Shown one piece after another: positions 3,595 to 23,961 of a stretch of DNA of 51,909 bases. The notes under the pieces were generated by a model. The model worked only from the letters and a program-made list of their open reading frames with translations. It had not been told where the DNA came from and did no database searches. The stretch is from a virus (Duplodnaviria; Caudoviricetes), in the IMG/VR virus record IMGVR_UViG_3300025965_000001, positions 1 to 51,909 of that record, one strand, 5' to 3'. Numbering within the stretch: position 1 is the first letter of the stretch; each line of letters opens with the position of its first letter. Both the position numbers and the translations under genes were made by a program.

Positions 3595-3599
3595 AATCC

Positions 3600-3628: not shown

Positions 3629-3659
3629 TGAAGGCGGCGGGCATCCATAAGGGGGATTC

Positions 3660-3887: not shown

Positions 3888-4072
3888 TGCAGATACCGAT
3901 TTGGTCTTTAGTTGTCGCATTGATTTTAGTTTCGCTTGCCCTATGGGTAAACGAAACCCTATGTAGAGACGAGATGGTTAAAAAGGTTGTGCGTGTCGTT
4001 ATCGTGGTGATGTTCGTGCTTTGGGTTGTTGGATTAGTGACCGGGGTAGGCCCGACGATTAGTTTCAGGTGA
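3887..4072 (+). CDS. Small two-TM membrane protein
   Basis: Two hydrophobic helices; AGGAGG RBS; TAATG coupling. Confidence 0.65.
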   Translation: MQIPIWSLVVALILVSLALWVNETLCRDEMVKKVVRVVIVVMFVLWVVGLVTGVGPTISFR

Positions 4073-4076
4073 TTCC

Positions 4077-4373
4077 ATGAAGCATCTACTTATTCTCACG
4101 GTGTTTCTTAGCGGCTGCGCCAACATGTTCTCAGCTAGCACAAAAATCACCTACACTGGCACCGATGGTAAGCAGGTAATGTATGAGAGCTACAAGGTGT
4201 ATGAGGGGCTAGACGTAAGTTTCGAGGAAGTGGCGGGCAAGCCAACGGCTGTAAAAATTCACATAGACAAGGCCACGACAGCCGAGGAAGCAATCAAGGC
4301 GGCTATACAAGCAAACATGGGACTGCAGGATCTAATAAAGCAGCTCGTTGCTGCAGGAATGGGGCCGAAATGA
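4077..4373 (+). CDS. Lipoprotein (possible spanin component)
   Basis: MKHLLILTVFLSG/C lipobox; position in lysis-like cluster. Confidence 0.65.
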   Translation: MKHLLILTVFLSGCANMFSASTKITYTGTDGKQVMYESYKVYEGLDVSFEEVAGKPTAVKIHIDKATTAEEAIKAAIQANMGLQDLIKQLVAAGMGPK

Positions 4374-4726
4374 AATATCTATTAGCATACATATTAGCTC
4401 TGATTGTTTTGTTGTTGTTTTCTCCGGGCTGGGCAAGTGATCGTTTGCTCACCTGGGACGGGCAGCCAGGGGCGGCATCCTATGAGATTCAACAGAGCGT
4501 TGATTACGGCAAAACCTGGACGGTGCTCTCTACGCCGGCCGCAAGCGTCTGCACCGGCACGCCGCTCAAGTGCTCACTCATTCAAAGTTTGCCGGTATCC
4601 GGGGTAATTATGCTCCGCTTTGGAGCACGAAACGCCAACGGACTCACTGTTCGTTTTGATGATGGTGCTTGGCACTGTGAGTCATGCGCTCCTCCGGGCA
4701 CGATTACTAATTCGGGGATTCAATAA
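4370..4726 (+). CDS. Secreted FN3-like single-domain protein
   Basis: Signal peptide ending PGWA/S; LTWD..GAASYEIQQS; four Cys. Confidence 0.65.
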   Translation: MKYLLAYILALIVLLLFSPGWASDRLLTWDGQPGAASYEIQQSVDYGKTWTVLSTPAASVCTGTPLKCSLIQSLPVSGVIMLRFGARNANGLTVRFDDGAWHCESCAPPGTITNSGIQ

Positions 4727-4864
4727 ATGGCATACTTTCAACCAGTACCTTGGCCCAAGTTAGAAGAAGATTATTTCTACTGGTTTCATTACTTGTGTGA
4801 ACGGCACCGGGGGCTAGAGTACGGGTACTGGTACTGGCAATGGCTCAACAATGACTGTCCGTGA
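4727..4864 (+). CDS. Small aromatic-rich hypothetical protein (45 aa)
   Basis: Own translation MAYFQPVPWPKLEEDYFYWF...; starts directly after the previous stop. Confidence 0.4.
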   Translation: MAYFQPVPWPKLEEDYFYWFHYLCERHRGLEYGYWYWQWLNNDCP

Positions 4865-5018
4865 CCTCATCGCCCATCTAGAAAACCTCGGCAACCTCGA
4901 CGCCGAAGTCAAGATTGTCTGCCATATCAAGCCAACGGAAGTAAGCTCCATTCAGTTGTTTGGTGAGACGGTGTTGATTGAAATTCTGGGAGAACTCAGC
5001 CCGCCGCTAGTAAAATAG
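4851..5018 (+). CDS. Small phage hypothetical protein (55 aa)
   Basis: Own translation MTVRDLIAHLENLGNLDAEV..., a common phage small-protein N-terminus. Confidence 0.55.
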   Translation: MTVRDLIAHLENLGNLDAEVKIVCHIKPTEVSSIQLFGETVLIEILGELSPPLVK

Positions 5019-5021
5019 TAC

Positions 5022-5050
5022 TTGACAAATCATATTACATGATGTACTAA
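5022..5050 (+). promoter_or_regulatory. Putative early sigma70 promoter with overlapping palindrome
   Basis: TTGACA(5022)-N17-TACTAA; palindrome TACAT-G-ATGTA in the spacer; ATG 7 nt downstream. Confidence 0.6.
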
Positions 5051-5057
5051 TACATCC

Positions 5058-5204
5058 ATGAGAGACAAATTCAGGCTCATGGTTGTTCAATGCTACAGGT
5101 GCGGGTATGCGTTCATACCTCGCGTAGTTGCCCCCAAGAAATGCCCTAACCCGAAGTGTCAGACGCCTTATCCTCTGAAGCGGCGAGAACTGAGGGGCAA
5201 GTGA
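5058..5204 (+). CDS. Zinc-ribbon small protein (48 aa), possible regulator
   Basis: Own translation MRDKFRLMVVQCYRCGYAFIPRVVAPKKCPNPKCQTPY...; CxxC...CxxxxC. Confidence 0.7.
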   Translation: MRDKFRLMVVQCYRCGYAFIPRVVAPKKCPNPKCQTPYPLKRRELRGK

Positions 5205-5368
5205 AGCGCAAGCCTGACAAAGAGGACGCTGACGAAACAATGGTGCGGATATTTCTCCGTGTCATGGAGAGAGTGAGACTAGCGGAGATCGGGCGGGACA
5301 AGAAAGCGATACTCCACCACTTTATCAACTGCAAAACGTGTCAGGAATGCTTCAAGAGAGCAGCGTAA
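5201..5368 (+). CDS. Hypothetical Cys-containing protein
   Basis: GTGA overlap start with GAGGGG RBS; C-terminal CxxCxxC. Confidence 0.5.
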   Translation: MKRKPDKEDADETMVRIFLRVMERVRLAEIGRDKKAILHHFINCKTCQECFKRAA

Positions 5369-5485
5369 ATGGAAGAGCTATTCATGTGGCTTTATAGCTT
5401 GCTGGCTCTTGGCGGTGCAATGTTGATAGCGCTAGCAGCAAGCTATGTCGTTTTGAAATGTCTAGGTAAATGGAGGGGTTTATGA
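5369..5485 (+). CDS. Small single-TM protein (38 aa)
   Basis: Own translation MEELFMWLYSLLALGGAMLIALAASYVVLK...; abuts genes on both sides. Confidence 0.45.
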   Translation: MEELFMWLYSLLALGGAMLIALAASYVVLKCLGKWRGL

Positions 5486-5721
5486 ATTGGGAGAGCTTCC
5501 GAAGCAAGCGCGAGATAGACATTGACAATGCGCTACAGGACCACCTCGATTGGATGTGCGACGAGGAGAGGTGTCCATGGTGCAAGCAGGAGAGAGAAGA
5601 AAGAGAACTCTACGAGCGCAAGAGTAAAAAGCTAGACGCTATGAACGCGCTATTTGACAATGGCGGGGATAAATTACTCAAGGCGTTTGATTGGGCGCTA
5701 GAGCAGATAAGGAACAAATGA
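5482..5721 (+). CDS. Hypothetical protein
   Basis: GGAGGGG RBS before ATG 5482; HxxxxC...CPWC. Confidence 0.55.
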   Translation: MNWESFRSKREIDIDNALQDHLDWMCDEERCPWCKQEREERELYERKSKKLDAMNALFDNGGDKLLKAFDWALEQIRNK

Positions 5722-6117
5722 AACGACGCAAGGGAATCACCTACTACAGCGAGGAATGGCCGGGGAGTCATAGCAACTATGAGTGGTCAGTGCGGTTTGA
5801 TATTACCGATGGAATTCTCGGCATTACCCAAATGCACATGGAGCCGCTGAGCAAAGACGAGCAACCGCTCGAACGTGTGTTGTTTAAACCAACGGCAAGT
5901 GCTGGAATTATTGAGGTTTGTCGGGCGCCCGGCGGCTACCCCTCGGAACAGCAGGCCGCTAAACTCAGCATTGCCGAGGGCTAGGAGAAGGGCGGGCTTG
6001 CGGCGCGGATATTACCGCGACCATACGGAAAGGCTATCCTTCTGCTCGCTAGGTGCTGTAAAATTGCACGAGAAGAGAGAAGGTACCCGCCCGCGCCGCA
6101 AGAAAAAACTAGTATGA
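5718..6117 (+). CDS. Hypothetical protein, possibly frameshifted near 5883-5889
   Basis: ATGA start at 5718; frame 0 stops at 5984, while the +1 frame runs on to an ATGA overlap with the next gene. Confidence 0.4.
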
Positions 6118-6464
6118 TATTCACTGCGCCGGCCATACTTACGAGGATGTCCTGCCTCAAGGATGGCAGCATGTCAATTGGCTTTGCCACCCAGGAGCTT
6201 AGCCTTGAGGATAAGGTCAAGGCGATGGAGTTTTATGGCAAGTATGGACGCCTGGCATTCAAGGAGACTGAGATTGAGCCGGAGGAGATCCCCAGCTGCG
6301 AGCCGGATGACCACCAGAAGACACCGAGCCAGCGGCTACGGGCGGTGCTGTTCCTGCTATGGAAACAGACCTGTAGCCACACGTCGGTAGAGTTTGACGA
6401 CTTCTACAGGAAAGAGATGGAGCGGATTATTACACTGAAGAAAGGACTTTTGGAGGATATATGA
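6114..6464 (+). CDS. Conserved phage hypothetical protein
   Basis: KTPSQRLRAVLF...FDDFYRKEMERII pattern seen in phage early regions. Confidence 0.65.
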   Translation: MIFTAPAILTRMSCLKDGSMSIGFATQELSLEDKVKAMEFYGKYGRLAFKETEIEPEEIPSCEPDDHQKTPSQRLRAVLFLLWKQTCSHTSVEFDDFYRKEMERIITLKKGLLEDI

Positions 6465-6973
6465 GACAAGACCTAACAATCGAGGAAGTATTCAAGGACA
6501 GACTTTTCGGGGAAGACCGTATCTGGACAGTGCGGGCCAACGGCAAGCGCTACGGGCTGTACCAGGACAAGCGGCCCAATGTAGGTGACTACATACCCTG
6601 CGACGTGGTGGAACGAAAAGATACCTACCAGGGCAGGCCGGTGGTGTATCGGGATGCCCGGCCGTTAATAGAGCATGTAAGGAAGGCTGAAGCTCAGGAG
6701 CAGGCAGCGCGGGGGGCTAACCCTTACCAACCGGAGAAACATAGCCTAGCGGCCTTCCTGCAAGCTGTGCCGGCCATTTTGAGCGTGCTTCCCAACTGGC
6801 AAAACGATGTGCAGCACGCTAGGGCCTATGTAACCTTTATTGACACTTGTTTGATGTGCTACGAGCGGGGCATGCCGCTTGGAGACTTGGCGGGGTTGCC
6901 GTCCAAGGAGGTACTGGACGCCTATGCCGAGGCCAACGGCAAGGATTGGGGGGATGTTCCCAATGAAAATTAA
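6461..6973 (+). CDS. Hypothetical protein (possible OB-fold ssDNA binding)
   Basis: GGAGG RBS; beta-rich N-terminus, acidic C-tail; recombination-region context. Confidence 0.5.
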   Translation: MRQDLTIEEVFKDRLFGEDRIWTVRANGKRYGLYQDKRPNVGDYIPCDVVERKDTYQGRPVVYRDARPLIEHVRKAEAQEQAARGANPYQPEKHSLAAFLQAVPAILSVLPNWQNDVQHARAYVTFIDTCLMCYERGMPLGDLAGLPSKEVLDAYAEANGKDWGDVPNEN

Positions 6974-7937
6974 AATTAGACAGTTAGACTGGAATCCTTT
7001 TCGTAATATCAAAGAGTATCCAATTAACAAGGAAAAAGTAAATGGATTGGTGAAATCTATAAAACAAACTTCTTTTTGGGATAATATCCTAGCTAGAGAA
7101 TCACCAATAAATCCAAAGCACTATGAGATTGCTTATGGACATCATCGGCTTGTGGCATTGCATAAAGTTTATGGCAAAGACTCGCGCCATGAAGTTGATA
7201 TTCCTGTGCGCGATCTAGACGATGCGACCATGCTCAAGATCATGGCCAATGAGAATGCTGCTGCCTGGACAATGGATACGGCGGTTGTGATGGAGACGAT
7301 AAAGGCGACGGAGAAATTTCTCTCCGGAGAGAAAAAGTACGGCCAGGGGCCAACTGCTATTAAGATCGTAGAATTTCTCGGTGGAGTATTTAGCCTAAAA
7401 ATGGTGGAAGAAGCTCTTGCCTTAATCCATGCCACGGATGCAAAGGAAGTCGATACTAAAGCTGTCAAAACAATCGACCAACCAAGTAAGGCTAGTGAGT
7501 TTGCGCGCGCCATTAAAAACCTATCAGAAGACAAGAAGCCTACGCCAGAAAAACAACTAGAGATAGCTGAGAAGATTGTTGAAAAAGAAATTCCCAAGAG
7601 GGGGATAAAACAATTCGTTGAATGGGAAATGGGGGTATATGGCGACGTTAAGCCCATCAAGCCTCTTCCTGATATTTCTCAATTTGCTTGGGAACATCGC
7701 GCCGAGATCGAACGGCTTACTAAGAAAATAGACGCTCTTGCGGATGAACGGGAGTCAATTCCTAATACGTTAGAGTGGAAAAGTTTCCGTGCTGCCTGCG
7801 CTTTATTATTAACTGCACTTAACCGGCTCTTCGGAAATGAAGAGGCCGTTGCTATGAAAGGAGAAAAATCTCATGGCAAGAAAAAAGAAAGACGAGCCGT
7901 CGAACAAAGACAAGCTCGTGCGTTACTTACTGAGTAA
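6963..7937 (+). CDS. ParB/Srx N-terminal domain protein
   Basis: NPFRN...LVKSIKQT...YEIAYGHHRLVAL...IMANEN ParB-NTD motifs; GGGGGA upstream of ATG 6963. Confidence 0.8.
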   Translation: MKIKIRQLDWNPFRNIKEYPINKEKVNGLVKSIKQTSFWDNILARESPINPKHYEIAYGHHRLVALHKVYGKDSRHEVDIPVRDLDDATMLKIMANENAAAWTMDTAVVMETIKATEKFLSGEKKYGQGPTAIKIVEFLGGVFSLKMVEEALALIHATDAKEVDTKAVKTIDQPSKASEFARAIKNLSEDKKPTPEKQLEIAEKIVEKEIPKRGIKQFVEWEMGVYGDVKPIKPLPDISQFAWEHRAEIERLTKKIDALADERESIPNTLEWKSFRAACALLLTALNRLFGNEEAVAMKGEKSHGKKKERRAVEQRQARALLTE

Positions 7938-8295
7938 CGAAAATATGGAATGGACCCTTGAAGATATGGCAGAGCATTTATTCAATACTGCTACGCCAGG
8001 GACCATTAAAATGGCTTCCGGCGTTTTCACGGGTGCCAGACGTGTGCTTTTGGATAATCACGACCATCTGATTATTCCAAAGAAGTATCTGGGCCGCAAG
8101 GCAATTAGTTGGCGCTTTGCTAGGGCCGATGACGCAGAAGATAAGGCAGTTGTTTATAATGCTATGGTACGTAAAGAGCACACTGCTCTAGGGTGGGAAA
8201 AGTCTTTTCAGAAGTCTCTAGCATTAGCTGAAAGAACTAATCTCATTTCCTCGGACCAAGCGCGTCAAATTAGAGATAGTCACGTAGGCGCTTAG
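7873..8295 (+). CDS. Hypothetical protein, possible winged HTH, partner of the ParB-like gene
   Basis: AAGGAG RBS; WTLEDMAEHLF helix pattern. Confidence 0.55.
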   Translation: MARKKKDEPSNKDKLVRYLLSNENMEWTLEDMAEHLFNTATPGTIKMASGVFTGARRVLLDNHDHLIIPKKYLGRKAISWRFARADDAEDKAVVYNAMVRKEHTALGWEKSFQKSLALAERTNLISSDQARQIRDSHVGA

Positions 8296-8336: not shown

Positions 8337-9047
8337 ATGCCAACCGACAATAACCGAGTAGTCTATACCAACGCCGCGGGCAAGAGAGTGCCGCGCAACA
8401 CGTCAATCCTTAATAATCTAGGCTGGAAGTCACCGGGTTTGGTCGGCTGGATGCGCAAGTCCTTGATCTCTCAAATGTGCCCGGCTTGTGTGTTTAAGCT
8501 AGTGGATCCTTACAAGCTCCGGGACGCCGCGGCGGATGCCGGGACGCTGGCGCACAGCATGATTGAGGCGTGTATCAAGAAGCAGCCGCAGCCCGATATA
8601 AGCAAGGTAGAGACGGATACGCTCAAAAAGGCTTGTCAGGCTTATGATAACTACCTTGAGTGGGCAAATCAGATGAAGGTAGAGCTTGTCACAATGGAGG
8701 TGCCCTTGGTATCCGAGCGGTGGCAGGCCGGGACCACTTGTGACGTGATTGCCCTGGTTGCCGGCAAGCTCTCTATTGTCGAGATAAAGACTAGCAACGA
8801 TGTGTACGCAGAAATGCTTGTCCAGTGCGCGTTTCAGGTGGAGGCATGGAATGAGGTTCATCCGTGGCATAGTCCTACTTCTGTCGGCCAACCAATCCAG
8901 GCCGTCCACTTACTGAAGCTCGGCAAGGAAGAGGCGACATTCTCCCACCACTTTTTCGCGCCCGAGGTGTTAGCGCCGGCGTTTGAGGCGTGGAAGTGTG
9001 CCAGGCAGCTAGAGGATTGCAAGAAGCAGTTGGAGAAGCTGATATAA
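8337..9047 (+). CDS. PD-(D/E)XK exonuclease (phage recombination type)
   Basis: GTLAHSMIE, E...AGTTCD...IVEIKTS, QCAFQ motifs. Confidence 0.8.
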   Translation: MPTDNNRVVYTNAAGKRVPRNTSILNNLGWKSPGLVGWMRKSLISQMCPACVFKLVDPYKLRDAAADAGTLAHSMIEACIKKQPQPDISKVETDTLKKACQAYDNYLEWANQMKVELVTMEVPLVSERWQAGTTCDVIALVAGKLSIVEIKTSNDVYAEMLVQCAFQVEAWNEVHPWHSPTSVGQPIQAVHLLKLGKEEATFSHHFFAPEVLAPAFEAWKCARQLEDCKKQLEKLI

Positions 9048-9652: not shown

Positions 9653-9994
9653 ATGGCTTATAGACGGACACGGAACAAGTACGGCAACGTCAAGGTAGAG
9701 ATTGACGGTTACAAGTTTGACAGCAAGGCGGAGGCGCGGCGCTATGGCGAGCTGAAGCTTCTCAAGGTAGCCGAGTTAGAGGTGCATCCGAAGTATCCGA
9801 TTATGATGCGCGGCCTTAAGGTGTGCGATGTCATTCTAGATTTTGAGTATAGCGATGAGACGGGCATGCACTACGAGGACGTGAAATCTAAGGGAACAGA
9901 TACGGCCATTTCCAGATTAAAGCGCCGCATGGTGTCTGCTGCATACGGAATAACTGTTGACGTTATTTACAATGAAAAAAAACCGCGTCACTAA
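9653..9994 (+). CDS. DUF1064-family PD-(D/E)XK endonuclease (putative resolvase)
   Basis: RNKYGNVKVEIDGYKFDSKAEARRY...DFEY...EDVKS. Confidence 0.88.
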   Translation: MAYRRTRNKYGNVKVEIDGYKFDSKAEARRYGELKLLKVAELEVHPKYPIMMRGLKVCDVILDFEYSDETGMHYEDVKSKGTDTAISRLKRRMVSAAYGITVDVIYNEKKPRH

Positions 9995-10649
9995 AAGCTG
10001 TAAAGTTTGTGGGATCACATTTGAGGTAACGAGATCACTGGCGCACTGTTACTCAACGTGTTCCAAACTATGCAGTTTAAAGTACAGATCCGCTTGTCAC
10101 ACTGGTCGAAAGATTTTTTGGGCTGATAAAATCAGACAAGCGCAACTGGGTAAAAAATGGACTGATTTTACGCCCGAATACTGTAGGAATATGCGAGAAA
10201 TAGCTTTAGTACGAGGCTATGGACAATGGATGAAAGGGAAGACTCTTTCAGTTGAAACTAAACAGAAAATTAAGGCTAGTCAGTTAGGGCACAAGCGGCG
10301 CGGGTGGAAATTTTCTGAAGAAACTCGACGCAGAATGAGCGATAGAGCGAGGAAAGGTGATAAATGCAATCTTTGGAAGGGTGGGGTGTGCCCGATTAAT
10401 GCAAAAATCCGTTCATCGTTTGAGTATAAGGCTTGGCGCACCAGGGTATTTCAACGGGATGATTATACGTGCCGAATATGTGGCATTCGAGGCGGAAAAT
10501 TGCACGCGGATCATATTTTGCCTTTTGCGAGGTATCCGGAACTAAGATTGGAATTAGATAATGGTAGGACTCTTTGCGTACCGTGTCACAAAGAAACTCC
10601 GACATACTTAAATTCATTCAAAAAAAACAATGTTCCCGTTTTAGCCTGA
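9972..10649 (+). CDS. NUMOD3-HNH homing endonuclease
   Basis: SVETKQKI/SEETRRRMS NUMOD3 repeats; LWKGG; RDDYTCRICG...HADHI...NGRTLCVPCH. Confidence 0.9.
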   Translation: MKKNRVTKSCKVCGITFEVTRSLAHCYSTCSKLCSLKYRSACHTGRKIFWADKIRQAQLGKKWTDFTPEYCRNMREIALVRGYGQWMKGKTLSVETKQKIKASQLGHKRRGWKFSEETRRRMSDRARKGDKCNLWKGGVCPINAKIRSSFEYKAWRTRVFQRDDYTCRICGIRGGKLHADHILPFARYPELRLELDNGRTLCVPCHKETPTYLNSFKKNNVPVLA

Positions 10650-10697: not shown

Positions 10698-10883
10698 ATG
10701 ACTAAACAACAGCAAGCACTTGCCAAGGAAATAATTGAACTAGAGGAAGGCATTAAACGAGCATTAAAGCATCTACGTTACGCTTCTCCCCGTAATGGGC
10801 CAATCATTAAGGCTATTAGCATTCTGGAGCATACATTAGTAGACAAGCGAGGAACTTGGGATGATGAGATTGAGAATTTTTGA
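10698..10883 (+). CDS. Hypothetical protein
   Basis: ORF, helical pattern. Confidence 0.45.
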   Translation: MTKQQQALAKEIIELEEGIKRALKHLRYASPRNGPIIKAISILEHTLVDKRGTWDDEIENF

Positions 10884-11058
10884 TTGGGGGACGCGATGGT
10901 TTTGGGTAGTGATCTTCTATAAGCCCCATATTTACGGGGAAGCCTATTTTACGATTGAGATTTTTAATCCCTCGAAACGGATGAGGTGGTTTCACTTTTG
11001 GCAATGGGAGCCATTTCCAGACAAGGGGGGAGAAGAAATTATTAATATGGCGAATTGA
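10861..11058 (+). CDS. Hypothetical aromatic-rich protein
   Basis: ORF overlapping its neighbours. Confidence 0.4.
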   Translation: MMRLRIFDWGTRWFWVVIFYKPHIYGEAYFTIEIFNPSKRMRWFHFWQWEPFPDKGGEEIINMAN

Positions 11059-11195
11059 TGGCTACAAAAAAGACTACTAGCCCTTCGGCACTTTATGCAG
11101 CCATTTACCGAGCAGAAGTCGAATACTCGGCTTTTCTCAGGGCTAAGAAGAAAAAGAAGAAACGCAAGCCTGTACCTCCAGTACGTAAGGGCTAG
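11058..11195 (+). CDS. Small basic protein (45 aa)
   Basis: Own translation MATKKTTSPSALYAAIYRAEVEYSAFLRAKKKKKKRK...; TGATG coupling. Confidence 0.4.
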   Translation: MATKKTTSPSALYAAIYRAEVEYSAFLRAKKKKKKRKPVPPVRKG

Positions 11196-11278
11196 GCATG
11201 TGGGAATATTACATAACGGTAAGCGATGCGAGCACAGCGGCGGCTGAGGAGGCGGCAGAGATAGTCAAGCGTTCGTTG

Positions 11279-11300
11279 CCCTTCGATTTCCCTCAGGGTA
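11279..11300. repeat. 22-bp inverted repeat, left arm (partner at 16213-16234)
   Basis: CCCTTCGATTTCCCTCAGGGTA is the exact reverse complement of TACCCTGAGGGAAATCGAAGGG. Confidence 0.9.
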
Positions 11301-11318
11301 GTGAGGCACTCGAACTAC

Positions 11319-12992
11319 CTACCCGTAACTCCCCGTCCTTTTCTTACGTGTCCCCTGCATCGGAGAAAGTCCCTGCCGAAGAGTAGAGAATCTCAAATTT
11401 GCATTGGCCAGGTAGTCTAGCATGCGCGGGTAATCGTTCTCTTTATCAACTGGAATACCTTTTACGTCATGAGTCAAGTCGCCCTTTCCTCCCCACTCGC
11501 TCCAGACATACTCGCGCATCTGCTTGATGAAATGGCGGCAGTGGTTGAAGACTAGGAGCCTGGGAGACTTCGACCGCGGATCGGGCTTGAGCATTTCCCG
11601 GACCCGCTTATGTCCTACCTCAAAAGAATCTGAAGCAAGAGCACAGCGCAAGCCAACAGCATCAAACTCGCTACGTACCGTGATGTGACGCTTACCAGCT
11701 GAGTGAGCCGGGCTCCCTGCCATACGAGGATCGATATATCTCGCAACCACATCAATATGTAAATTGTGCTCCCAAGCAAGAACGCGATCACGCACAGTGG
11801 CAGGATCACCGTCTACCTCCATTTCGTTTAAAACATACCAGTCATCGGCGGGATCGATCGCTACCCACATGCACATGTTAGGCTTACGAGGATGGGGGTC
11901 GATAAAGAAGGCAACGGGCCAGCGATAGGCCGCCTCGAACGGCTCAATAACGTGGTTGAACGAGGTGACATTCTGTTGCTCGCAGGTAACGCATTTCCCA
12001 TTATTGAGAATGACTACGCTATTGCAGGTGAAGCAGTAATTGCGCGCGGTATTGGTGAACAGCGGATAAATACGCCCGCTAAGGTGGATAAACGCCCCGT
12101 GTAATCTGACCTCTCTTTGCTCAGGTGATAATCCCTTGCTTACTTCCTCAATTGATTTAGCGTCTAGGATTTTGTTTTCTTCGGTGAACAGGTTGATCGA
12201 GGTAACACCTGGGTCTTTCTCCGGCCCGTCAAGGCCCTTCTCAAATAGGGAATAGATCCATGAGCCGCGCATGGCTCGGCCAACCTCGTCTGGCGGCGTA
12301 AATCCCGAGTACACCTGCCCGCCCGTGTCCATGGTGCGGATTAGGTTCTCACGGTACATGGAGGCATCCGGCGCCTCATCGAAGATAACGCGGTGAAGAG
12401 ATGTGCCGCTCTGGTCCTGTGTCTCCTGATCGTATGACATGATCTGCAAGGTACAGCCGCAGGTGAGGGTCAAGGTGCGCTCTTTCTCCGACCAGCTATC
12501 CTCCCACTTGCCACGCTTTAAGAACCGCTGTGGTATCCAGCCCCAGTGACCGAATTGACCTCCTGGCTTACCCCTGCCATTCCATACCCACCATTGGAGC
12601 TTGGGACGTATCACGGGAGCCCAGGTGTTGGTTAATGATTCACATACTAAACGATATCTACCCGGACAGTGGATCTTCTCTTTCGGATACACGTCTTTAA
12701 GGGAATACGGGATTATGCCGGTCATGGAAATGACAAGATCGAGGAGATTCGAGTCTGTCTTTGAGCTGCGGTTCCCGCCTACTGCCAAAACCTCTTTGGT
12801 GGTTGCCATGTGGATGCCAATGGCTTTGGGATTGACAACCTCTGCGAGCTCTAGCTGCTGTACTTGTTTGATCTGTGAGCGTGTCTCTAAGACTTCGTTG
12901 GCTAGCTTCTCAAGGTCTTCGAGCGTGTAGTGCTTGAATGTGTCCTTGGTGATCGGGGCGCCGGAGCTGAGCAAGTCTTGGAGGGTGGACAT
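11319..12992 (-). CDS. terL: Terminase large subunit
   Basis: Walker A AVGGNRSSKT, Walker B RVIFDE, coupling motif FTP, REVRLHGAF, nuclease FIDPH and C-terminal ND...D. Confidence 0.92.
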   Translation of the reverse strand: MSTLQDLLSSGAPITKDTFKHYTLEDLEKLANEVLETRSQIKQVQQLELAEVVNPKAIGIHMATTKEVLAVGGNRSSKTDSNLLDLVISMTGIIPYSLKDVYPKEKIHCPGRYRLVCESLTNTWAPVIRPKLQWWVWNGRGKPGGQFGHWGWIPQRFLKRGKWEDSWSEKERTLTLTCGCTLQIMSYDQETQDQSGTSLHRVIFDEAPDASMYRENLIRTMDTGGQVYSGFTPPDEVGRAMRGSWIYSLFEKGLDGPEKDPGVTSINLFTEENKILDAKSIEEVSKGLSPEQREVRLHGAFIHLSGRIYPLFTNTARNYCFTCNSVVILNNGKCVTCEQQNVTSFNHVIEPFEAAYRWPVAFFIDPHPRKPNMCMWVAIDPADDWYVLNEMEVDGDPATVRDRVLAWEHNLHIDVVARYIDPRMAGSPAHSAGKRHITVRSEFDAVGLRCALASDSFEVGHKRVREMLKPDPRSKSPRLLVFNHCRHFIKQMREYVWSEWGGKGDLTHDVKGIPVDKENDYPRMLDYLANANLRFSTLRQGLSPMQGTRKKRTGSYG

Positions 12993-13000
12993 GCAAGATC

Positions 13001-13034
13001 AGTATAGACACAAACGGGTGTAATGTGCTAGGAT
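13001..13034. promoter_or_regulatory. Overlapping divergent promoters for terL (minus) and the replication gene (plus)
   Basis: Minus: TATACT (13006-13001) 8 nt before the terL ATG. Plus: TAGACA(13005)-N18-TAGGAT with extended TG. Confidence 0.5.
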
Positions 13035-13047
13035 ATTACCAATCGTG

Positions 13048-13160
13048 AAGGTTATGCACGTAACCTTACAAATCTTTAAAGTTCAGAAAGCATGGCCCAA
13101 GCCTACCGCCCCGGTTGAGCTATGCGAGCGTGCACTCGCGGGCTATGCTTTGTGAGCTTT
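13048..13160 (+). ncRNA. Candidate structured 5' leader RNA of the replication gene
   Basis: Hairpin AAGGTTA/TAACCTT (loop TGCACG); long stem AAAGCATGGCCC/GGGCTATGCTTT enclosing hairpin GCGAG/CTCGC (loop CGTGCA). Confidence 0.55.
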
Positions 13161-13164
13161 TGAA

Positions 13165-13914
13165 GTGAGCGATCTACCTTGGATGAAGTTCTATCCTGCC
13201 GACTGGCTACAAGATACTCGTTGTCTAACTAAAGAAGCGCGCGCCGTTTGGATTGACCTCATTTGTCAGATGTGGGTATCGCCAAGACGCGGCAAACTGA
13301 AATGGACTCAAGCGCAATTTAATTCGTTCATCGGTGCTGAGACAGACCCTGAGTTTTCAACGAACATTTGGAATCAATTAGCACAAAGTTGTGTCGGAAA
13401 TTTCCAAATTTCAGGTGATTTTTTGTTCATATCTTGTCGCAGGATGATTAAAGAAGAACATAAACGAAATCAAGTATATAGGCGAGTGAAACGCTTTCGT
13501 AACGCTAATGTAACGCAAAATAAACGCATAAGAGGTCAGAAGTCAGATATCAGAAGTCAGATATCAGATAAGAAAGAAGAAGATACGTCGGACGCTAACG
13601 CATCCGACCCGTGTCCATCGGTTAAGGAATTTACGGAATCATGGAATCAGTTGTTTAAGGGACAGTTGTCTTTAATCGAATTGCCACTTAGCCGCGATAG
13701 AGAACGAAGATTGAAGTTGCGCCTTGCGGAGCACCCTAGTACGCAGTATTGGGAAGAGGTTTTTGGCGCAATAGATTCGAGCCCATTCTTGTTAGGCAAA
13801 ACTGACAGTAAGAATGGACATCAAGGGTGGCGCTGCACGTTTGATTTTTTAATTGCCAACAGTACTAATTGTGTTAAAATTCATGAGGGACAATATGAAA
13901 AAAAAGGTAACTAG
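13165..13914 (+). CDS. Replication initiator-like protein (YdaU/DUF1376-type N-terminus)
   Basis: LPWMKFYPADWLQDT...ARAVWIDLICQMW; low-complexity linker; C-terminal SPFLLG...GWRCTFDFLI...KIHEGQY. Confidence 0.85.
   Translation: MSDLPWMKFYPADWLQDTRCLTKEARAVWIDLICQMWVSPRRGKLKWTQAQFNSFIGAETDPEFSTNIWNQLAQSCVGNFQISGDFLFISCRRMIKEEHKRNQVYRRVKRFRNANVTQNKRIRGQKSDIRSQISDKKEEDTSDANASDPCPSVKEFTESWNQLFKGQLSLIELPLSRDRERRLKLRLAEHPSTQYWEEVFGAIDSSPFLLGKTDSKNGHQGWRCTFDFLIANSTNCVKIHEGQYEKKGN
13490..13570 (+). repeat. Putative origin iterons inside the replication gene
   Basis: AACGC at 13490, 13501, 13512, 13523 (11-bp period), then five tandem 7-mers TCAGA(AG/TA) at 13536-13570. Confidence 0.6.
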
Positions 13915-14317
13915 ACTTAGCGATATCAAGAGAACGCCGTGTAGCGGTGGCAATTCTTTTGATTGCAAGGTGATAACGAACAACAAGGGGGTTGAGGCTG
14001 GCGAACTTAAGGCCGGCGAGCATTATCAGGGATTTCGGAAGTCGTGCTATCGCTGCGGAACTTATCTCGGCTGCTCTGTCTGTGCACAGAACGATAGTGA
14101 GCTTATTTGCCTTAATTGCGATTCGGACCTGAACCCGCCCGGCAATTGGGGCACGAAGCGAGCCATGCGCAAACATGGGCGTATAATCCGTGACCCAGAA
14201 GTGGCTAAGGAGGCCTGGAAGATTGTCAAGATGCGCGAGAATGGGCAGATAAATCAACAAGAACAGGACAAGCTATTCGCTGACCTGGGTAGAGTAACGG
14301 GCTATAATTTTTCTTGA
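13895..14317 (+). CDS. Zinc-finger hypothetical protein downstream of rep
   Basis: GAGGGA RBS; three CxxC pairs. Confidence 0.6.
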   Translation: MKKKVTRLSDIKRTPCSGGNSFDCKVITNNKGVEAGELKAGEHYQGFRKSCYRCGTYLGCSVCAQNDSELICLNCDSDLNPPGNWGTKRAMRKHGRIIRDPEVAKEAWKIVKMRENGQINQQEQDKLFADLGRVTGYNFS

Positions 14318-14362
14318 CTTATCAACAGCATATAGTTTAATAGGTTTAATCGTGATATTCCC

Positions 14363-14599
14363 ATGGGCAACGCATACGACAGAACAACGGTCAAATGCCG
14401 TAACTGCTGGATCGACATGGAAGAGCTGTCAGATCACTGGTGGTGTAACCGATGTGGACTATCCTGGACCAAGCCCGATACTAAGTTCGGTGAACTCCGA
14501 GTAGTGAGCGGTGGCCGTTCGACTGGGCTCACGGCAGGGAAGACTCGCATACGTGCTAAACAGAATCTTTTACGAATGGAGGATGAAACAAGTGGCTAA
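14363..14599 (+). CDS. Small zinc-ribbon protein
   Basis: CRNC...WCNRCG. Confidence 0.55.
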   Translation: MGNAYDRTTVKCRNCWIDMEELSDHWWCNRCGLSWTKPDTKFGELRVVSGGRSTGLTAGKTRIRAKQNLLRMEDETSG

Positions 14600-14631
14600 G
14601 AAGAAGAAATCTAAGAAGCCGGTGAAGTGAG

Positions 14632-15114
14632 TTGGGACAAGGCGTTTCAGTCAATCCCGTCAAAGCTGCACTCGCTATGAATTATGGTGATGCAGGTATG
14701 TCGAGCCCGCAGGTGGCCGAGATAGTGGGGATCCCCGCTAGAACAGTCCGGGATATCGTTTCCAGACATGGGCATTGGGGCGAAATGGCGGAGAGACCAG
14801 TTTTTGCCCAGTTGCGCCTTGAGCAAAAACAGCATCTTGAAGCTGCGAGTCGATATTTATCCTCACAATGTCTCATCCACGTCGAAGAAAACCTACATAA
14901 ATGCAGTAGTTACCAAGCTGCGGGGATCTACGGCCTACTCCGCACTCACGAGCGTTTAGACGCGGGAGAGGCCACAACTAACGTGGCCGTTCACGCTGAG
15001 GTTGAGGTCCGCGGGCTGGATCAGCTCGCCGCGGCGTTGAGTGAGGCGATCCTGGAGCGCAAGGAATCAAACAACGTACCTGCCAGTACAACCAACCATA
15101 AATCAAGTACTTAG
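14632..15114 (+). CDS. Putative terminase small subunit
   Basis: N-terminal HTH (GMSSPQVAEIVGIPARTVRDIV), helical core, RLDAGEATTNVAV C-terminal motif. Confidence 0.65.
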   Translation: MGQGVSVNPVKAALAMNYGDAGMSSPQVAEIVGIPARTVRDIVSRHGHWGEMAERPVFAQLRLEQKQHLEAASRYLSSQCLIHVEENLHKCSSYQAAGIYGLLRTHERLDAGEATTNVAVHAEVEVRGLDQLAAALSEAILERKESNNVPASTTNHKSST

Positions 15115-15177
15115 CTTGCCATAGTTTACATAATACAGCTTATACGACATTGTGTCTTGATATATATCAAGCACTTA
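15101..15177. promoter_or_regulatory. Two IHF-consensus boxes flanking the dif-like site
   Basis: AATCAAGTACTTA (15101-15113) and TATCAAGCACTTA (15165-15177) match WATCAANNNNTTR. Confidence 0.55.
15123..15150 (-). other. dif: dif-like XerC/XerD recombination site
   Basis: Minus strand ATGTCGTATAA-GCTGTA-TTATGTAAACT: 11-6-11 layout resembling E. coli dif GGTGCGCATAA-TGTATA-TTATGTTAAAT. Confidence 0.78.
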
Positions 15178-15446
15178 CGTGTTGTTGCACATTATCAAGC
15201 ACACTGCCTTAGATAATTAGGCACGTGGCTTGGGCATGTGGTTTGGTGTATATAGCACAGTGTTTGAGTGTGTAATGTGGCGTGTAGTCAGGTAGTTGCG
15301 TGCTGCTGTGTGTGTGGTGGGCGTGGCATGGCTGCGCTGAGATCGGTTTGGCCCGCCCCCCTACCCCCGCTTGGGCTTAAGATTCCCCCCGTCAGACACC
15401 GCAACGATAAAAGTTCCTTTTTCTGCGCCAAAACAACAAAAGAGCC

Positions 15447-15504
15447 TTGACAACCATTTAGCACTGTGCTACCAGTACAACTGTACAACAAGTACAAACG
15501 GAGG
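15447..15504 (+). promoter_or_regulatory. Promoter with three GTACAA direct repeats (possible RHH operator)
   Basis: TTGACA(15447)-N17-TACCAG; GTACAA at 15475, 15483, 15492; GGAGG RBS. Confidence 0.55.
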
Positions 15505-15514
15505 TTTAGTTGAG

Positions 15515-15880
15515 ATGGATATAAAGGTTCATGTTGATGTAGAGCGGCAACTTTGGAAGGATGTGCAGATACATTGTATTCAGCAAGAGGTATCGATTCG
15601 GAGTTTTGTTGAGGAGGCGCTGTTGTACAAGTTGAACAGCGGTACGATAGAGCAGCCGTTTGTAAGGGTATCGGTATCCAACACTCCGCCCGAGCCGCCT
15701 CAGCTGAAAACCGGTGAGTTAACGAAAGAGGAGCTATTGGCCGCTGAGGCTCGACGCAAAGAGAAAGCTGCTGCGGTGCAGAGGCCCAAGGAGCCCGAGC
15801 CTATCTCCGAGGTAGTAGACAAGCCCAAGTTTAACCCTTACAAGCTGGGGGCGACTGCCACTCATTTCAAGAAGGAGTGA
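15515..15880 (+). CDS. Ribbon-helix-helix DNA-binding protein with disordered tail
   Basis: IKVHVDVERQLWKDVQIHCIQQEVSIRSFVEEAL fits the RHH pattern. Confidence 0.7.
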   Translation: MDIKVHVDVERQLWKDVQIHCIQQEVSIRSFVEEALLYKLNSGTIEQPFVRVSVSNTPPEPPQLKTGELTKEELLAAEARRKEKAAAVQRPKEPEPISEVVDKPKFNPYKLGATATHFKKE

Positions 15881-15883
15881 GCC

Positions 15884-16084
15884 ATGGGAAGGGTACGGGT
15901 AATAGTGAGGCTGGACAGCGATTTGGTGAAGGCGTCTCGCGCTCACTGTGTTAAGGAGCGTGCGCATTGGCCTAAATTTGTCGGTGAAGCGATTGCGGAG
16001 AAGTTGCACAGGTTTAAGGTTCACAAGGAGCGGGATCTGGCGTGGAAGAGGTTTTTGAAGTCTAGGAACCAAAGCGCAGGGTGA
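15884..16084 (+). CDS. Ribbon-helix-helix DNA-binding protein
   Basis: RVRVIVRLDSDLVK...FVGEAIAEKL; AAGGAG RBS. Confidence 0.68.
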   Translation: MGRVRVIVRLDSDLVKASRAHCVKERAHWPKFVGEAIAEKLHRFKVHKERDLAWKRFLKSRNQSAG

Positions 16085-16085
16085 G

Positions 16086-16220
16086 ATGATGTCACCTTCT
16101 CACATTCTTTTATTTGCGGTGTTTATCTTACTGACGCTCTTTTATCCGTGGTTGTGGGTGGAGTGGCTGGTGTTTTATGTGTTGTTGGAGTGGCTGGACT
16201 CGCCAAAGGGTTTACCCTGA
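16086..16220 (+). CDS. Small membrane peptide (44 aa)
   Basis: Own translation MMSPSHILLFAVFILLTLFYPWLWVEWLVFYVLLEWLDSPKGLP. Confidence 0.4.
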   Translation: MMSPSHILLFAVFILLTLFYPWLWVEWLVFYVLLEWLDSPKGLP

Positions 16221-16234
16221 GGGAAATCGAAGGG
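16213..16234. repeat. 22-bp inverted repeat, right arm (partner at 11279-11300)
   Basis: Exact reverse complement of the left arm. Confidence 0.9.
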
Positions 16235-16241
16235 AGTGAGG

Positions 16242-16328
16242 ATGCGATTCTTAACTTTGCTTGTTTTCTTACTGGCCATGTTTTTTCTCTGGGTTTACTT
16301 TTTACCGCAGATTGGGGGTCCGAGTTGA
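16242..16328 (+). CDS. Small membrane peptide (28 aa)
   Basis: Own translation MRFLTLLVFLLAMFFLWVYFLPQIGGPS; AGGGAG RBS. Confidence 0.4.
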   Translation: MRFLTLLVFLLAMFFLWVYFLPQIGGPS

Positions 16329-16372
16329 ATAATTCCTTTTCTTTGTTCTCTTACTAGCGTATTCTGCCTGTC

Positions 16373-18778
16373 ATGGCTGAAGTCTTTGGTATCTTACCAC
16401 CGGACATTTCCGGCGAACCCCCATCTCCTACCTTACCGACTTCCCCCGGCCCGCGCCGCCAACCTCTCCAAGTAGATCGTGACTTACTCTCTAAAAAGAT
16501 TGTTCAGATGGTTGACCGCGACATGGATGAGCGCGAGGACCGCCACCAGCGCCGATTAGCAAGGCGGGCCGCCGTCTACGGCTGGCAATCCCAAAAAGAC
16601 TGGCCGTGGCCGAACGCCGCAACGGTCTACCTGCCGATCATGCAGATAGCGAACCTAAAGACCCGCGGCACGCTAGAGAACGCCATCAAATCTTTCCGCC
16701 CGGTAATGGAGGCCAAGGCCCGGAAAAAGGAGAACAGCGGCAAAGAGGATGCTATTAACCGCGTGCTCGATTATCAGTTTTTCGGGGAGAATCCCGGCGA
16801 GGATCTAATTGACGCCTATGTGACAAACTTTGTCGAGGATGAGGCGGCCTTTCTCTTCGCCAACTGGGTGAAGGAGTCGGAATCCTACCACGATGTCCGA
16901 TTGTTCCCGCCGATAGCCGACAATCCCGAAGCCCAACTTACCCTCTACCTGCAGCAAATGTTCGGCCCGCAAGCGGTAGCAAGTCAAAAAGGCTCCCCCT
17001 GGGAATGGGAAGTGCGCTATGAGGAGCACCCGGGCGAAGTTAAGGACTGTCTCGTCAATTTCTATGTATCCCAGGATGAGCGGAATATTGAGGCACATAT
17101 TATTTGCCGCCAGACTACCCACGACGGCCCGTGCATCAGTGTGGAGGATTTTGAGGATGTGATTTTCCCGGCGCGCGCGGCCAACCTCCAGCCGCCAACG
17201 GCCTCCAACCCACGCGGCGCAAGGTACGTGGCGCGTCTAACCACCGTTACCAAGGATACTGTCCGGCGCCGCATGGCGGATAAAACCTATGATCTTTTAA
17301 CAGCCGACGACTGGGAGAAAATAGAAAAAGGAAAATCCCCCGTTGGCACCGGCACACAGCCCGATGAGGCCAAACAACAAAAAGACGAGATGGAAGGCAC
17401 CTACACCGAACGCACAACTGAGCGTGACGACTTATCCCAGATCGTCTGGTTCGGCCGTGAGGACGTGAACGGGGATGGGCTAGAGGAGGATATTATCGTC
17501 TGGTGCCTCCGCGATCCCGATATCGTTTGTAAAGTTGTCTTACTAACCGAAATGTATCCCGGTGTGCCGCTTCGCCGTCCATTTTCCGCTAAAAGTTTTA
17601 TCTCGATACCCAATCGGGTGCTAGGACTATCTCAGAGCGAACTTTTAGAGAATATCCAGAGCCACATGCAAACCGCCCTTGAGCAACATGAGGACTGGGG
17701 AACGATCACAAACACGCCCTTTTTCACCTACCGGGCGGCAAGCGGCATGCGCCCGGAGCCAATTAGAATAGAGCCCGCTGTGGGGATACCGCTGGACGAT
17801 CCCGCGGGCGATATTAACTTCCCCGTCTGGCCAACAAAGGATTCCGCCTATGCTCTTAATACGATTGCCCTTTACCAGCAGTTCGCAGAGCGCATCCAGA
17901 TGTTTAGTGATGTTTCCCTTGGACGCGTCCCAATGGGTAGAAGTTCAGCTCTCCGAAACGTTGGTTCGCTCACTTCTCTCATGGGTCAAGCTGATTCGAG
18001 ATCCGAGCAAGTACTTCGCCGTTTACTTTCCGGCCTTGCCGAAATCTTCGAGATCATGCACCGGCTCAACCGAAGATTCCTGCCCCAGCGAAAAGAAGTC
18101 AGAATAATCGGAGTAAGCGAGCAGGGACAAGACGCCTATGTGACGGTCGATAGGTCGGAGCTCGATGTTGACGTGGAGTTCGAGTTTAAGGCGACGCTGA
18201 CCAACACCAACAAGCAAGTCCTATCGCAAAACTTAGATCAGATCATCGCGCTCGCCATCACGCCGCTGGCATTCCAAGCAGGCCTCGCCGACCTCGAAAG
18301 TATGTACGTTTTGCTCACAGATAAGTGTAAAGCGTTGGACCTGGAGCCGGACAAGTACTTCAAGCGCCCGCCCCAGATGCCCGCAGGCCCGAAAGTATTA
18401 GCCGAGGAAGTCCTCGATCTAATCCTCGAAGACCGTTTTCTAGAGATGATGCCGGTAGCGCAGCCGCTCGAAGGGGCAATCAATCACCTGCAGAAACTTA
18501 TGCTCCACATGAGCGGGCCGGAAAAGGCGCTCTTCAACCCGACACAAATTCAGATCCTCGACGCCTGGGTGGAAAAGCTAAAACAGCAGGTGATACAGCA
18601 GCAGATGATGGTAGCGGCCATGCAGCAATTTCAACAGCAACAGGGCGGCGGGCAGCAAGGCAACCAGAACGCAGTCAGCGGAGCACCGGGGCCGTCCGGC
18701 GGCGCGCCATCCGTGCAGCCGAACCGCCCCATGGATGCGAGCATCAATCCGGGCGCTACTAACGGCGGCGTAATGTGA
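16373..18778 (+). CDS. Portal protein (P22-like, Gln-rich C-terminus)
   Basis: 801 aa; KDWPWPNAA N-terminal motif; first gene of the head module; C-terminal Q-rich coil. Confidence 0.85.
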   Translation: MAEVFGILPPDISGEPPSPTLPTSPGPRRQPLQVDRDLLSKKIVQMVDRDMDEREDRHQRRLARRAAVYGWQSQKDWPWPNAATVYLPIMQIANLKTRGTLENAIKSFRPVMEAKARKKENSGKEDAINRVLDYQFFGENPGEDLIDAYVTNFVEDEAAFLFANWVKESESYHDVRLFPPIADNPEAQLTLYLQQMFGPQAVASQKGSPWEWEVRYEEHPGEVKDCLVNFYVSQDERNIEAHIICRQTTHDGPCISVEDFEDVIFPARAANLQPPTASNPRGARYVARLTTVTKDTVRRRMADKTYDLLTADDWEKIEKGKSPVGTGTQPDEAKQQKDEMEGTYTERTTERDDLSQIVWFGREDVNGDGLEEDIIVWCLRDPDIVCKVVLLTEMYPGVPLRRPFSAKSFISIPNRVLGLSQSELLENIQSHMQTALEQHEDWGTITNTPFFTYRAASGMRPEPIRIEPAVGIPLDDPAGDINFPVWPTKDSAYALNTIALYQQFAERIQMFSDVSLGRVPMGRSSALRNVGSLTSLMGQADSRSEQVLRRLLSGLAEIFEIMHRLNRRFLPQRKEVRIIGVSEQGQDAYVTVDRSELDVDVEFEFKATLTNTNKQVLSQNLDQIIALAITPLAFQAGLADLESMYVLLTDKCKALDLEPDKYFKRPPQMPAGPKVLAEEVLDLILEDRFLEMMPVAQPLEGAINHLQKLMLHMSGPEKALFNPTQIQILDAWVEKLKQQVIQQQMMVAAMQQFQQQQGGGQQGNQNAVSGAPGPSGGAPSVQPNRPMDASINPGATNGGVM

Positions 18779-23878: not shown

Positions 23879-23961
23879 ATAAAGGGAATTTGGAACCATG
23901 TTGCAGATGGCATTGACAAAATGTAGTTTCTATGACAGTACTCTCCGTAAAGGGGGTATTT

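Follow-up and report, generated by a model that had tools for sequence, protein, structure and literature searches.

A complete phage genome carries its large terminase gene (terL) antisense and away from the portal gene, in a 4.9-kb segment bounded by a perfect 22-bp inverted repeat. We lean towards reading this repeat as the fixed footprint of a lineage-specific rearrangement and not as a working switch. Adjacency of terL and portal, which all 89 related loci with both genes keep, is among the most conserved in tailed phages; a complete, repeatedly sampled phage here breaks it. It follows that a phage can detach its packaging ATPase from the late operon and, as the layout suggests, transcribe it divergently beside the replication initiator. 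If the 22-mer was once a hairpin loop, its duplication would be a rare clean record of how a rearrangement happened, and a structured intergenic site would be where a staggered break or a template switch took place.

The inverted repeat and the segment it bounds

The window (the whole stretch of DNA analysed, 51,909 nt) represents a complete phage record that assembled as a circle (~51.8 kb). The two arms of the repeat lie at 11279-11300 (CCCTTCGATTTCCCTCAGGGTA) and, in reverse complement, at 16213-16234; each measures 22 nt, and the pair is 100% complementary with 4,912 nt in between. They are the only two copies in the window with up to three mismatches allowed, and none of 100 dinucleotide shuffles reached two matches (mean 0.00), which bears out the perfect repeat described in a sequence-only reading of this DNA. 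By our own estimate, any perfect 22-bp inverted pair would arise in 52 kb with a probability of ~8e-5. Independent k=31 contigs from four runs, one of them a soil metagenome from a different study and year, reproduce both junctions exactly. Together with the shuffles, these contigs effectively refute a chance repeat or an assembly artefact, to which we give almost no weight.

The segment and its flanks are laid out as follows.

11279..11300, no strand: left arm of the inverted repeat, 18 nt past the terL stop
11300..11306, plus: AGTGAGG at the left arm, overlapping the last base of the arm; reverse complement of the CCTCACT half-stem on the terL side of the rebuilt junction
11319..12992, minus: terL, large terminase subunit, 557 aa, full length; the displaced, inverted gene
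12993..13164, no strand: divergent intergenic region of 172 bp, from terL start to rep start
13165..13914, plus: replication initiator (rep; DnaD/lambda O-like), with DnaD/O-like PHROG matches and iteron-like internal repeats at 13531-13581
13853..14317, plus: ORF of 154 aa, no family match
14363..14599, plus: ORF of 78 aa, no family match; an earlier RHH label is unconfirmed
14632..15114, plus: HTH protein, probable small terminase subunit (terS); HTH_23 below cut-off, homologues upstream of terL
15115..15370, no strand: no coding sequence; a 16-bp palindrome and three TATCAAGCAC-like repeats
15371..16084, plus: two ORFs (169 aa, 66 aa), no family matches and no homologues in related loci
16086..16220, plus: small hydrophobic open frame of 44 aa, no family, ending inside the right arm
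16213..16234, no strand: right arm of the inverted repeat, with 138 nt from its end to the portal ATG; holds the TGA stop (16218-16220) of the small hydrophobic ORF
16235..16241, plus: AGTGAGG directly after the right arm, the putative 3' half-stem of an ancestral hairpin
16373..18778, plus: portal protein (SU10-type), PF23899 SU10_portal at 5e-25; directly after terL in relatives

Judged by its sequence, the ORF at 11319-12992 is a large terminase, being full length with conserved catalytic residues. It aligns full-length and keeps every invariant column of a 27-sequence alignment, including G73 N74 K78 and D205 E206, which we take to be the Walker A and Walker B motifs. Pfam Terminase_6N matched at 1.4e-6 (28.5 bits against a cut-off of 22), and there were 607 homologues, some labelled terminase by their source. 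The closest (P0002-P0020) had 52-63% identity, and Arthrobacter phage terminases 25%. The product of the HTH gene at 14632-15114 is probably TerS on sequence and position; a relative of it matches a 'DNA invertase' PHROG over the C-terminal HTH part only. The non-coding region downstream (15115-15370) may be an ori or pac region. Ribbon-helix-helix (RHH) labels given earlier to genes here were not borne out by any Pfam or PHROG match at E ≤ 0.01. The terL gene is not alone on the minus strand: a minus-strand ORF at 3277-3837 matches an endonuclease PHROG at 2.6e-15.

The left arm lies 18 nt beyond the end of the terL ORF (11301-11318) and the right arm 138 nt before the portal ATG (16235-16372), and these coordinates agree with the distances first reported. 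Along the terL coding strand, the stop is followed by 18 nt and then the 22-mer; along the portal coding strand, the identical 22-mer comes first, then 138 nt and the portal ATG. The match between the arms is perfect, no decayed homology extends outside them, and their sole internal symmetry is a 9-bp near-palindrome. Half-motifs CCCTNAGGG and AAATCGAAGGG did not occur in the window beyond the arms, except for one chance-level match with one mismatch at 9884. Local folds around each arm were not significant (z -0.4 to +0.6), so the arms are not terminators today. A promoter/terminator scan stayed at chance level (5 found against 6.6 expected, 7 against 6.7), and Rfam and tRNA scans of the whole window found nothing. 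The divergent region between terL and rep, where the terL promoter presumably must sit, includes a strongly structured plus-strand element within 13060-13170 (-48.7 kcal/mol, z -5.7).

Gene order in relatives and a proposed lineage-specific rearrangement

Related loci numbered 160 at first and 171 once genome contigs were added. IMG/VR relatives were found with a TerL alignment as the query; TerL as a single query against IMG/VR returned no relative, and those relatives seen in their genomic context had TerL identities no higher than ~50%. Closer relatives were sought with Rep, which gave only distant N-terminal matches (≤35% over ≥100 residues), and with ORF 15371-15880, which gave none. The segment DNA had no match in the GenBank phage collection.

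Comparing orientation in related genomes, a check proposed at the outset, showed a layout different from that of the window. All 79 loci with both genes in the first set, and 89 of 89 in the full set (the other 82 held terL only), had terL immediately before portal on one and the same strand. A homologue of the HTH gene lay upstream of terL on the same strand in each of the 11 loci having one, and the structural genes after portal were collinear with the window. In the window, terL is antisense and ~3.4 kb from its canonical place before portal. Given the order terS>terL>portal on one strand in relatives, terL has therefore been displaced and inverted in this phage. The terL-portal gap in the 12 closest relatives was 230, 252, 150, 159, 294, -1, 860, 11, 327, 1, 144 and 11 nt. 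When the ORFs between terS and terL of relatives were compared with the small ORFs of the window, the terS-like protein alone was held in common.

The terL, terS-like and portal proteins were about equally similar to the same relatives (48%, 41% and 45%, respectively, in locus L104), which indicates that they were co-inherited and not imported. This argues against the segment being a mobile element that inserted into the phage with terL, rep and terS as cargo, a very improbable origin despite perfect 22-bp terminal inverted repeats bounding a segment with its own replication initiator. Pfam and PHROG scans held no transposase, the outer flanks, CGTTCGTTG and AGTGAGGAT, are unlike each other and so give no target-site duplication, and the arms had no other copy in the window or, as an exact 22-mer, in IMG/VR (0 matches). 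The same bounded 4.9-kb unit was not found in unrelated genomes or as a free replicon.

Flipping the segment was expected to give the canonical order. It does rebuild terL>portal, but it turns terS and rep antisense, and terS is sense in 11 of 11 relatives. Because the family order is terS>terL>portal on one strand, one flip of the 4.9-kb segment cannot restore the ancestral layout. The scar of a past inversion was thus the best supported of the three explanations first offered, although not as a single 4.9-kb flip. With terS and rep left antisense by the flip, it needs a three-break event or two inversions with a common endpoint: either terL alone would have moved and inverted, or there would have been at least two events, the repeat marking the last.

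We propose the following course. The ancestor would have had terS, terL, a short spacer and portal on a single strand, with a hairpin between terL and portal whose loop was the only copy of the 22-mer. If that loop suffered a staggered break that was then filled in, or an equivalent event by template switching, one copy of the 22-mer would have stayed on the terL 3' end and another before portal. The terL gene, together with its 3' flank and the region upstream of it, would then have come to lie inverted ~3.4 kb upstream, before the replication genes, by inverted transposition of terL alone or by two nested inversions, the last across the whole 4.9 kb. This would explain why the two copies are now mutually inverted. 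Transcription of terL would start from a promoter of its own in the divergent region of 172 bp that it has in common with rep.

The rebuilt terL-portal junction would have a 178-nt spacer with a single ancestral 22-mer. This flip-made junction folds into a 35-nt hairpin (-18.4 kcal/mol) with a 7-bp CCTCACT/AGTGAGG stem on CCCT/AGGG, and its 102-nt context has a modest z of -2.2 against mononucleotide shuffles. The AGTGAGG that had been noticed after both arms is present at both, although the left copy overlaps the last base of its arm, and the two would be half-stems of the ancestral hairpin. The half-stem argument is weakened by the local frequency of AGTGAG, with 10 of its 14 plus-strand copies within 11300-16240. 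With ~50% TerL identity the closest that relatives seen in context come, the hairpin and the single ancestral copy are inferred and not seen directly; selection could be another cause of the perfect identity of the arms.

A possible flipping segment or paired element

Contigs of all four runs (4/4) span both arms in the orientation of the window, with no other letters at the arms, no strand-changing joints and no contig breaks. These contigs are 5-9x deep, and contigs drop rare variants. Recombinase, integrase and transposase families were absent from the 63 ORFs by Pfam (16 + 47) and from the PHROG scans, consistent with the earlier statement that no recombinase is encoded. An active host-catalysed switch, one of the first explanations, finds no support in these data, and the two orientations that were looked for across both arms came down to that of the window.

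The segment might still flip rarely, its 22-bp arms recombined by host or phage enzymes between a terL>portal layout and one with rep and terS in sense. Perfect inverted arms do flank it, one orientation does restore the terL>portal adjacency, and the phage encodes an exonuclease (8337-9047) and a Holliday-junction resolvase-like protein (9653-9994); at 5-9x, rare variants would be dropped. Set against this are the single orientation seen in the contigs of all four runs, the lack of a site-specific recombinase among the 63 ORFs, and the shortness of the arms, 22 bp being no more than the minimum that efficient homologous recombination usually needs. The arms being identical, all ORF ends are kept in either orientation and operon context alone would differ, so flipping alters neither a promoter-gene link nor a coding end; it changes no ORF and leaves 6-7 genes antisense. 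We therefore hold rare flipping to be improbable.

The arms may also be a paired functional element. In an RNA version, they would pair in a long plus-strand transcript, the 22-bp duplex closing a 4.9-kb loop that could be cut by RNase III; in a protein version, which was also among the first explanations, one protein would bind the arms at both ends of the replication/terL block. Either version would process the antisense-terL read-through and the early message, or insulate them. The genome does hold a second perfect inverted repeat, of 20 bp (7784-7803/8302-8321), which brackets one plus-strand gene exactly (69 nt before the ATG and 6 nt after the stop) and whose stem closes the predicted RNA fold (z -7.0). 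In 102 related loci of at least 5 kb (1.25 Mb, window included), there was one other perfect inverted repeat of at least 20 bp with arms more than 400 nt apart, in L015. That the 22-bp arms are perfect, with no decayed homology beyond, also fits a functional pair.

However, the 22-bp and 20-bp repeats have no sequence in common, and a 4.9-kb loop is kinetically unlikely to close. None of the 171 related loci (1.42 Mb) has the 22-mer (0 matches with up to five mismatches, ~1.1 expected by chance), and the window lacks the extra copies or half-sites usual for the motif of a regulator. Arms at the 3' flank of terL and the 5' flank of portal are, moreover, exactly what a junction duplication predicts. 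We consider a paired element rather unlikely.

A second perfect long-range inverted repeat could mean a common functional class and not two independent scars. There is a small chance that the arms are a working device, bracketing the replication/terL block as the 20-bp repeat brackets a single early gene, either through RNA pairing to process or insulate antisense-terL transcripts or through a rare, recombinase-independent flip by which terL would rejoin the portal operon late in infection. If active or functional, the arms would make up a new type of control element that needs no recombinase, but the present evidence does not support this. A fixed footprint of a past rearrangement remains the reading we prefer.

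Comparison with known systems

In site-specific invertible segments, such as Mu G/Gin, P1 C/Cin, Salmonella Hin and the invertons of gut bacteria, short inverted repeats flank a kilobase-scale segment, as they do here. Our segment differs in having no invertase gene near or far and one orientation seen, in offering no alternative gene ends and no invertible promoter, and in its content, which is terL and replication genes rather than tail-fibre or surface genes. Candidate DNA bounded by inverted repeats on viral contigs has been described for metagenomic viral invertons, with 16 candidates of which 8 lie inside a CDS or up to 1000 bp from where a viral CDS starts, in a paper whose main text does not contain the word 'terminase' (PMC13501310). 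Those candidates were, by that account, called from reads of both orientations, whereas no such support was found here.

Lambdoid phages have conserved module-boundary sequences that promote exchange. The 22-mer resembles these as a short identical sequence at module borders (replication/packaging against portal/structural), but it is present as two inverted copies in one genome and was not found in IMG/VR or in the 171 related loci.

In the staggered-break model for Drosophila inversions, breakpoints are flanked by short inverted duplications. Our case differs in being a phage with a duplication of only 22 bp, and in that a one-step flip does not regenerate the ancestral order, the ancestor itself being deduced from relatives at ~50% identity. 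The likeness is that a rearranged segment in fixed orientation, with no recombinase, is bounded by the inverted duplication of a sequence that was presumably single-copy at one ancestral breakpoint.

Displacement of terL relative to the family layout

We gathered 171 related loci with a 27-sequence TerL alignment (80 from IMG/VR, 80 metagenome contigs and 11 genome contigs), their TerL being 21–52% identical to that of the window over most of the protein. Comparing orientation in relatives, as the sequence-only reading had proposed, set the window apart: wherever a locus contained both genes, the two shared a strand and portal came directly after terL. This held for 79 of 79 such loci among 160 and, once the genome contigs were added, for 89 of 89 among all 171. 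The other 82 loci held terL only and were short contigs or distant relatives. All 11 loci with a homologue of the terS-like gene carry it 515–2,907 nt upstream of terL and in the same direction, which makes terS > terL > portal the layout of the family.

Features of the terL segment and its borders
11279–11300, left arm of the inverted repeat, 22 nt
11319–12992, minus strand, terL, large terminase (Terminase_6N, 1.4e-6, above cut-off)
13165–13914, plus strand, replication initiator (rep), DnaD/O-like (PHROG match)
14632–15114, plus strand, HTH protein, probable terS (HTH_23, below cut-off)
16213–16234, right arm of the inverted repeat, 22 nt
16373–18778, plus strand, portal, SU10-type (profile matches)

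The HTH protein is called probable terS because of where its homologue lies in relatives; the remaining ORFs of the segment had no family match in Pfam and PHROG scans. Going by gene order, terL of the window is displaced and inverted, with terS and portal keeping their strand, and past portal the relatives and the window are collinear. On these comparisons, the inversion is real and unique with respect to the 89 comparable relatives. It had also been claimed that flipping the segment would give the canonical order. An in silico flip does rebuild terL > portal, but leaves terS antisense, together with rep and another four or five ORFs. As terS lies upstream of terL and in its sense in the relatives, the ancestral order is not recovered by one flip. 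Nor is terL strictly alone on the minus strand: although nearly every other gene has plus-strand orientation, an endonuclease-like ORF (3277–3837, minus; phrog_2340) does not.

At E ≤ 0.001, terL had 607 homologues, some carrying the source name terminase; the nearest of these were 52–63% identical, a number of them on contigs of 44–55 kb. The closest cultured relatives of its product are Arthrobacter phage terminases (25% identity). In an alignment with 26 homologues, TerL is covered from end to end and keeps every invariant column, so terL looks intact as judged from its sequence. Four cysteines between the ATPase and nuclease parts (C320, C323, C334 and C337) are invariant in 27 of 27 aligned sequences and resemble a zinc-ribbon insertion that would typify this TerL clade.

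The closest long relative, locus L104, is 41% identical to the window in terS, 48% in terL and 45% in portal. In its positions 1–8000, most genes before terS run in the opposite direction, and no homologues in common with the window early genes were found; by this comparison, the clade exchanges its early modules, whose orientation also varies.

Other elements lie within the segment. Just upstream of the rep start, plus-strand positions 13060–13170 are predicted to fold into a three-way junction closed by an imperfect 21-nt repeat (13078–13098/13140–13160; −48.7 kcal/mol, z −5.7, none of 200 shuffles reaching this stability); the minus strand gave z −1.95, and the element had no Rfam match. 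The rep gene contains iteron-like tandem repeats at 13531–13581 (AGAGGTCAGAAGTC/AGATATCAGAAGTC), and a non-coding stretch after the terS-like gene (within 15100–15270) combines the palindrome CTTGATATATATCAAG with three repeats resembling TATCAAGCAC. Both regions are candidate ori and pac sites, and the dif site named in the sequence-only reading may be located here.

The inverted repeat and its orientation in sequence data

The repeat is exactly as the sequence-only reading described it: two 22-nt arms, 100% complementary and 4,912 nt apart, with no further copy in the window at up to three mismatches. The spacings claimed, 18 nt from the left arm to the terL ORF end (11319) and 138 nt from the right arm to the portal ATG (16373), are correct by coordinates. 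None of 100 dinucleotide shuffles gave two matches, and by our own estimate any perfect 22-bp inverted pair would arise in 52 kb with a chance of ~8e-5; the repeat is real and non-random. The 22-mer was not found in any of the 171 related loci at up to five mismatches, and the exact 22-mer had no match in IMG/VR. Between the terS block and portal are two tiny hydrophobic ORFs (16086–16220, 44 aa; 16243–16329, ~28 aa), the first of which has its TGA inside the right arm.

Thirteen public runs contained at least 57% of sampled words of 10800–16700, and four of them, three from wetland (2019) and one from soil (2022, another study), were examined as contigs. In all four, one contig crossed the left arm (records 1, 5, 9 and 13) and another the right arm (records 4, 8, 11 and 17), always in the window orientation and with 0 differing letters; no strand-changing joints or contig ends occurred at the arms in these contigs. 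We reject an assembly artefact, both crossings being reproduced without differing letters. Rare flipping of the segment between the arms could escape such contigs, which at a depth of 5–9x drop rare variants and could miss a minority orientation; all four runs show the window orientation alone, and we consider such flipping quite improbable. Recombinase, integrase and transposase families were absent from the 63 ORFs (Pfam; 16 + 47) and from the PHROG scans, as had been claimed. Because no recombinase is present and the flip alters no ORF, an active site-specific switch finds no support.

Origin of the repeat

Read in the terL sense, the left locus runs terL stop, 18 nt, TACCCTGAGGGAAATCGAAGGG; read in the portal sense, the right locus runs through the same 22-mer, 138 nt and the portal ATG. 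A single ancestral copy between terL and portal would give a spacer of 178 nt. This length is within the spread of the 12 closest relatives, whose gaps measure 230, 252, 150, 159, 294, −1, 860, 11, 327, 1, 144 and 11 nt. The motif AGTGAGG does follow both arms on the plus strand, flanking the left arm on its inside and the right arm on its outside, so that CCTCACT and AGTGAGG would face each other across the 22-mer in the rebuilt junction. That hypothetical junction folds into a 35-nt hairpin (−18.4 kcal/mol; z −2.2 in 102-nt context), whereas the present sequence round each arm folds no better than shuffles (z −0.4 to +0.6). From this contrast, the 22-mer appears to have been the loop of a hairpin at the terL 3′ end, later duplicated, although AGTGAG is common locally (10 of 14 plus-strand copies lie in 11300–16240), a caveat on the half-stem argument.

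With modest confidence, we take a fixed rearrangement scar as the most likely meaning of the repeat. An ancestral hairpin with the 22-mer as its loop would have stood between terL and portal; DNA broken on either side of the 22-mer would have led to its duplication, by a staggered break with fill-in or by a template switch, one copy moving with terL and the other remaining at portal. The genome is homing-endonuclease-rich, with a possible bearing on the origin of the breaks: it has four endonuclease-type genes (3277–3837, minus; 9957–10649; 23932–24561; 26592–27644). Of these, an HNH gene carrying a NUMOD3 motif sits ~630 nt before the left arm; in another, an HNH-like N-terminal part is fused to transferase repeats of the hexapeptide type.

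The arms might instead form a functional paired element, a reading that we regard as rather unlikely but that gains from a second perfect long-range inverted repeat in the same genome. This 20-bp repeat (7784–7803/8302–8321) brackets a single plus-strand gene exactly (7873–8295, 140 aa, without family match), leaving 69 nt ahead of the ATG and 6 nt past the stop. The left arm of this repeat falls within the 3′ end of a ParB_N-like ORF (6879–7937), and the RNA is predicted to close on the 20-bp stem (−197 kcal/mol, z −7.0). Across 102 loci of at least 5 kb (1.25 Mb, window included), only one perfect inverted repeat of at least 20 bp with arms more than 400 nt apart was found beyond the window's, in locus L015. 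Given this rarity, the window's two repeats may share a cause, perhaps recurrent scarring by inversions, perhaps selection for sites of long-range pairing or binding.

Locus L015, a 79.9-kb IMG/VR record, has only the N-terminal ~190 residues of TerL, in a 248-aa frame (10001–10537; 62–65% identity to the window TerL), and no C-terminal part anywhere in the record. Its perfect 46-bp repeat (11644–11689/16762–16807, arms 5.1 kb apart) lies just downstream of the partial TerL, where the coding strand switches. Chimeric assembly, or a further rearrangement, may account for this.

As for the record itself, bases 1–99 exactly repeat 51811–51909, and its class is virus with direct terminal repeats, 100% complete; the genome is thus ~51.8 kb (about 51,810 bp), a circular assembly. 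A 45-nt repeat occurs four times at 32387–33205 (62–76% identity to the reference copy) within an 825-aa ORF (31901–34378), indicating a repeat-domain protein.

Comparison with known systems

We reject a TIR-bounded mobile element because transposase, target duplication and further copies are all lacking, and because similarity to the same relatives is about equal for terS, terL and portal, as in L104. The classical invertible segments, Mu G/Gin, P1 C/Cin and Hin, have flanking inverted repeats, as do invertons, and the window locus shares this feature. It differs from them in having no recombinase, and only one orientation of it was seen in the contigs of the four runs. Metagenomic reads have led to proposals of putative viral invertons (PMC13501310), and the passages of that paper available to us describe none concerning a terminase. 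A literature search for an inverted terL bounded by repeats found none, which is not proof of absence from print. The best match to the window locus is an inversion or transposition breakpoint with flanking inverted duplication. Inverted duplications at rearrangement breakpoints can be explained by the staggered-break model, and the locus would be a tidy case of this known type of event in an unusual place.
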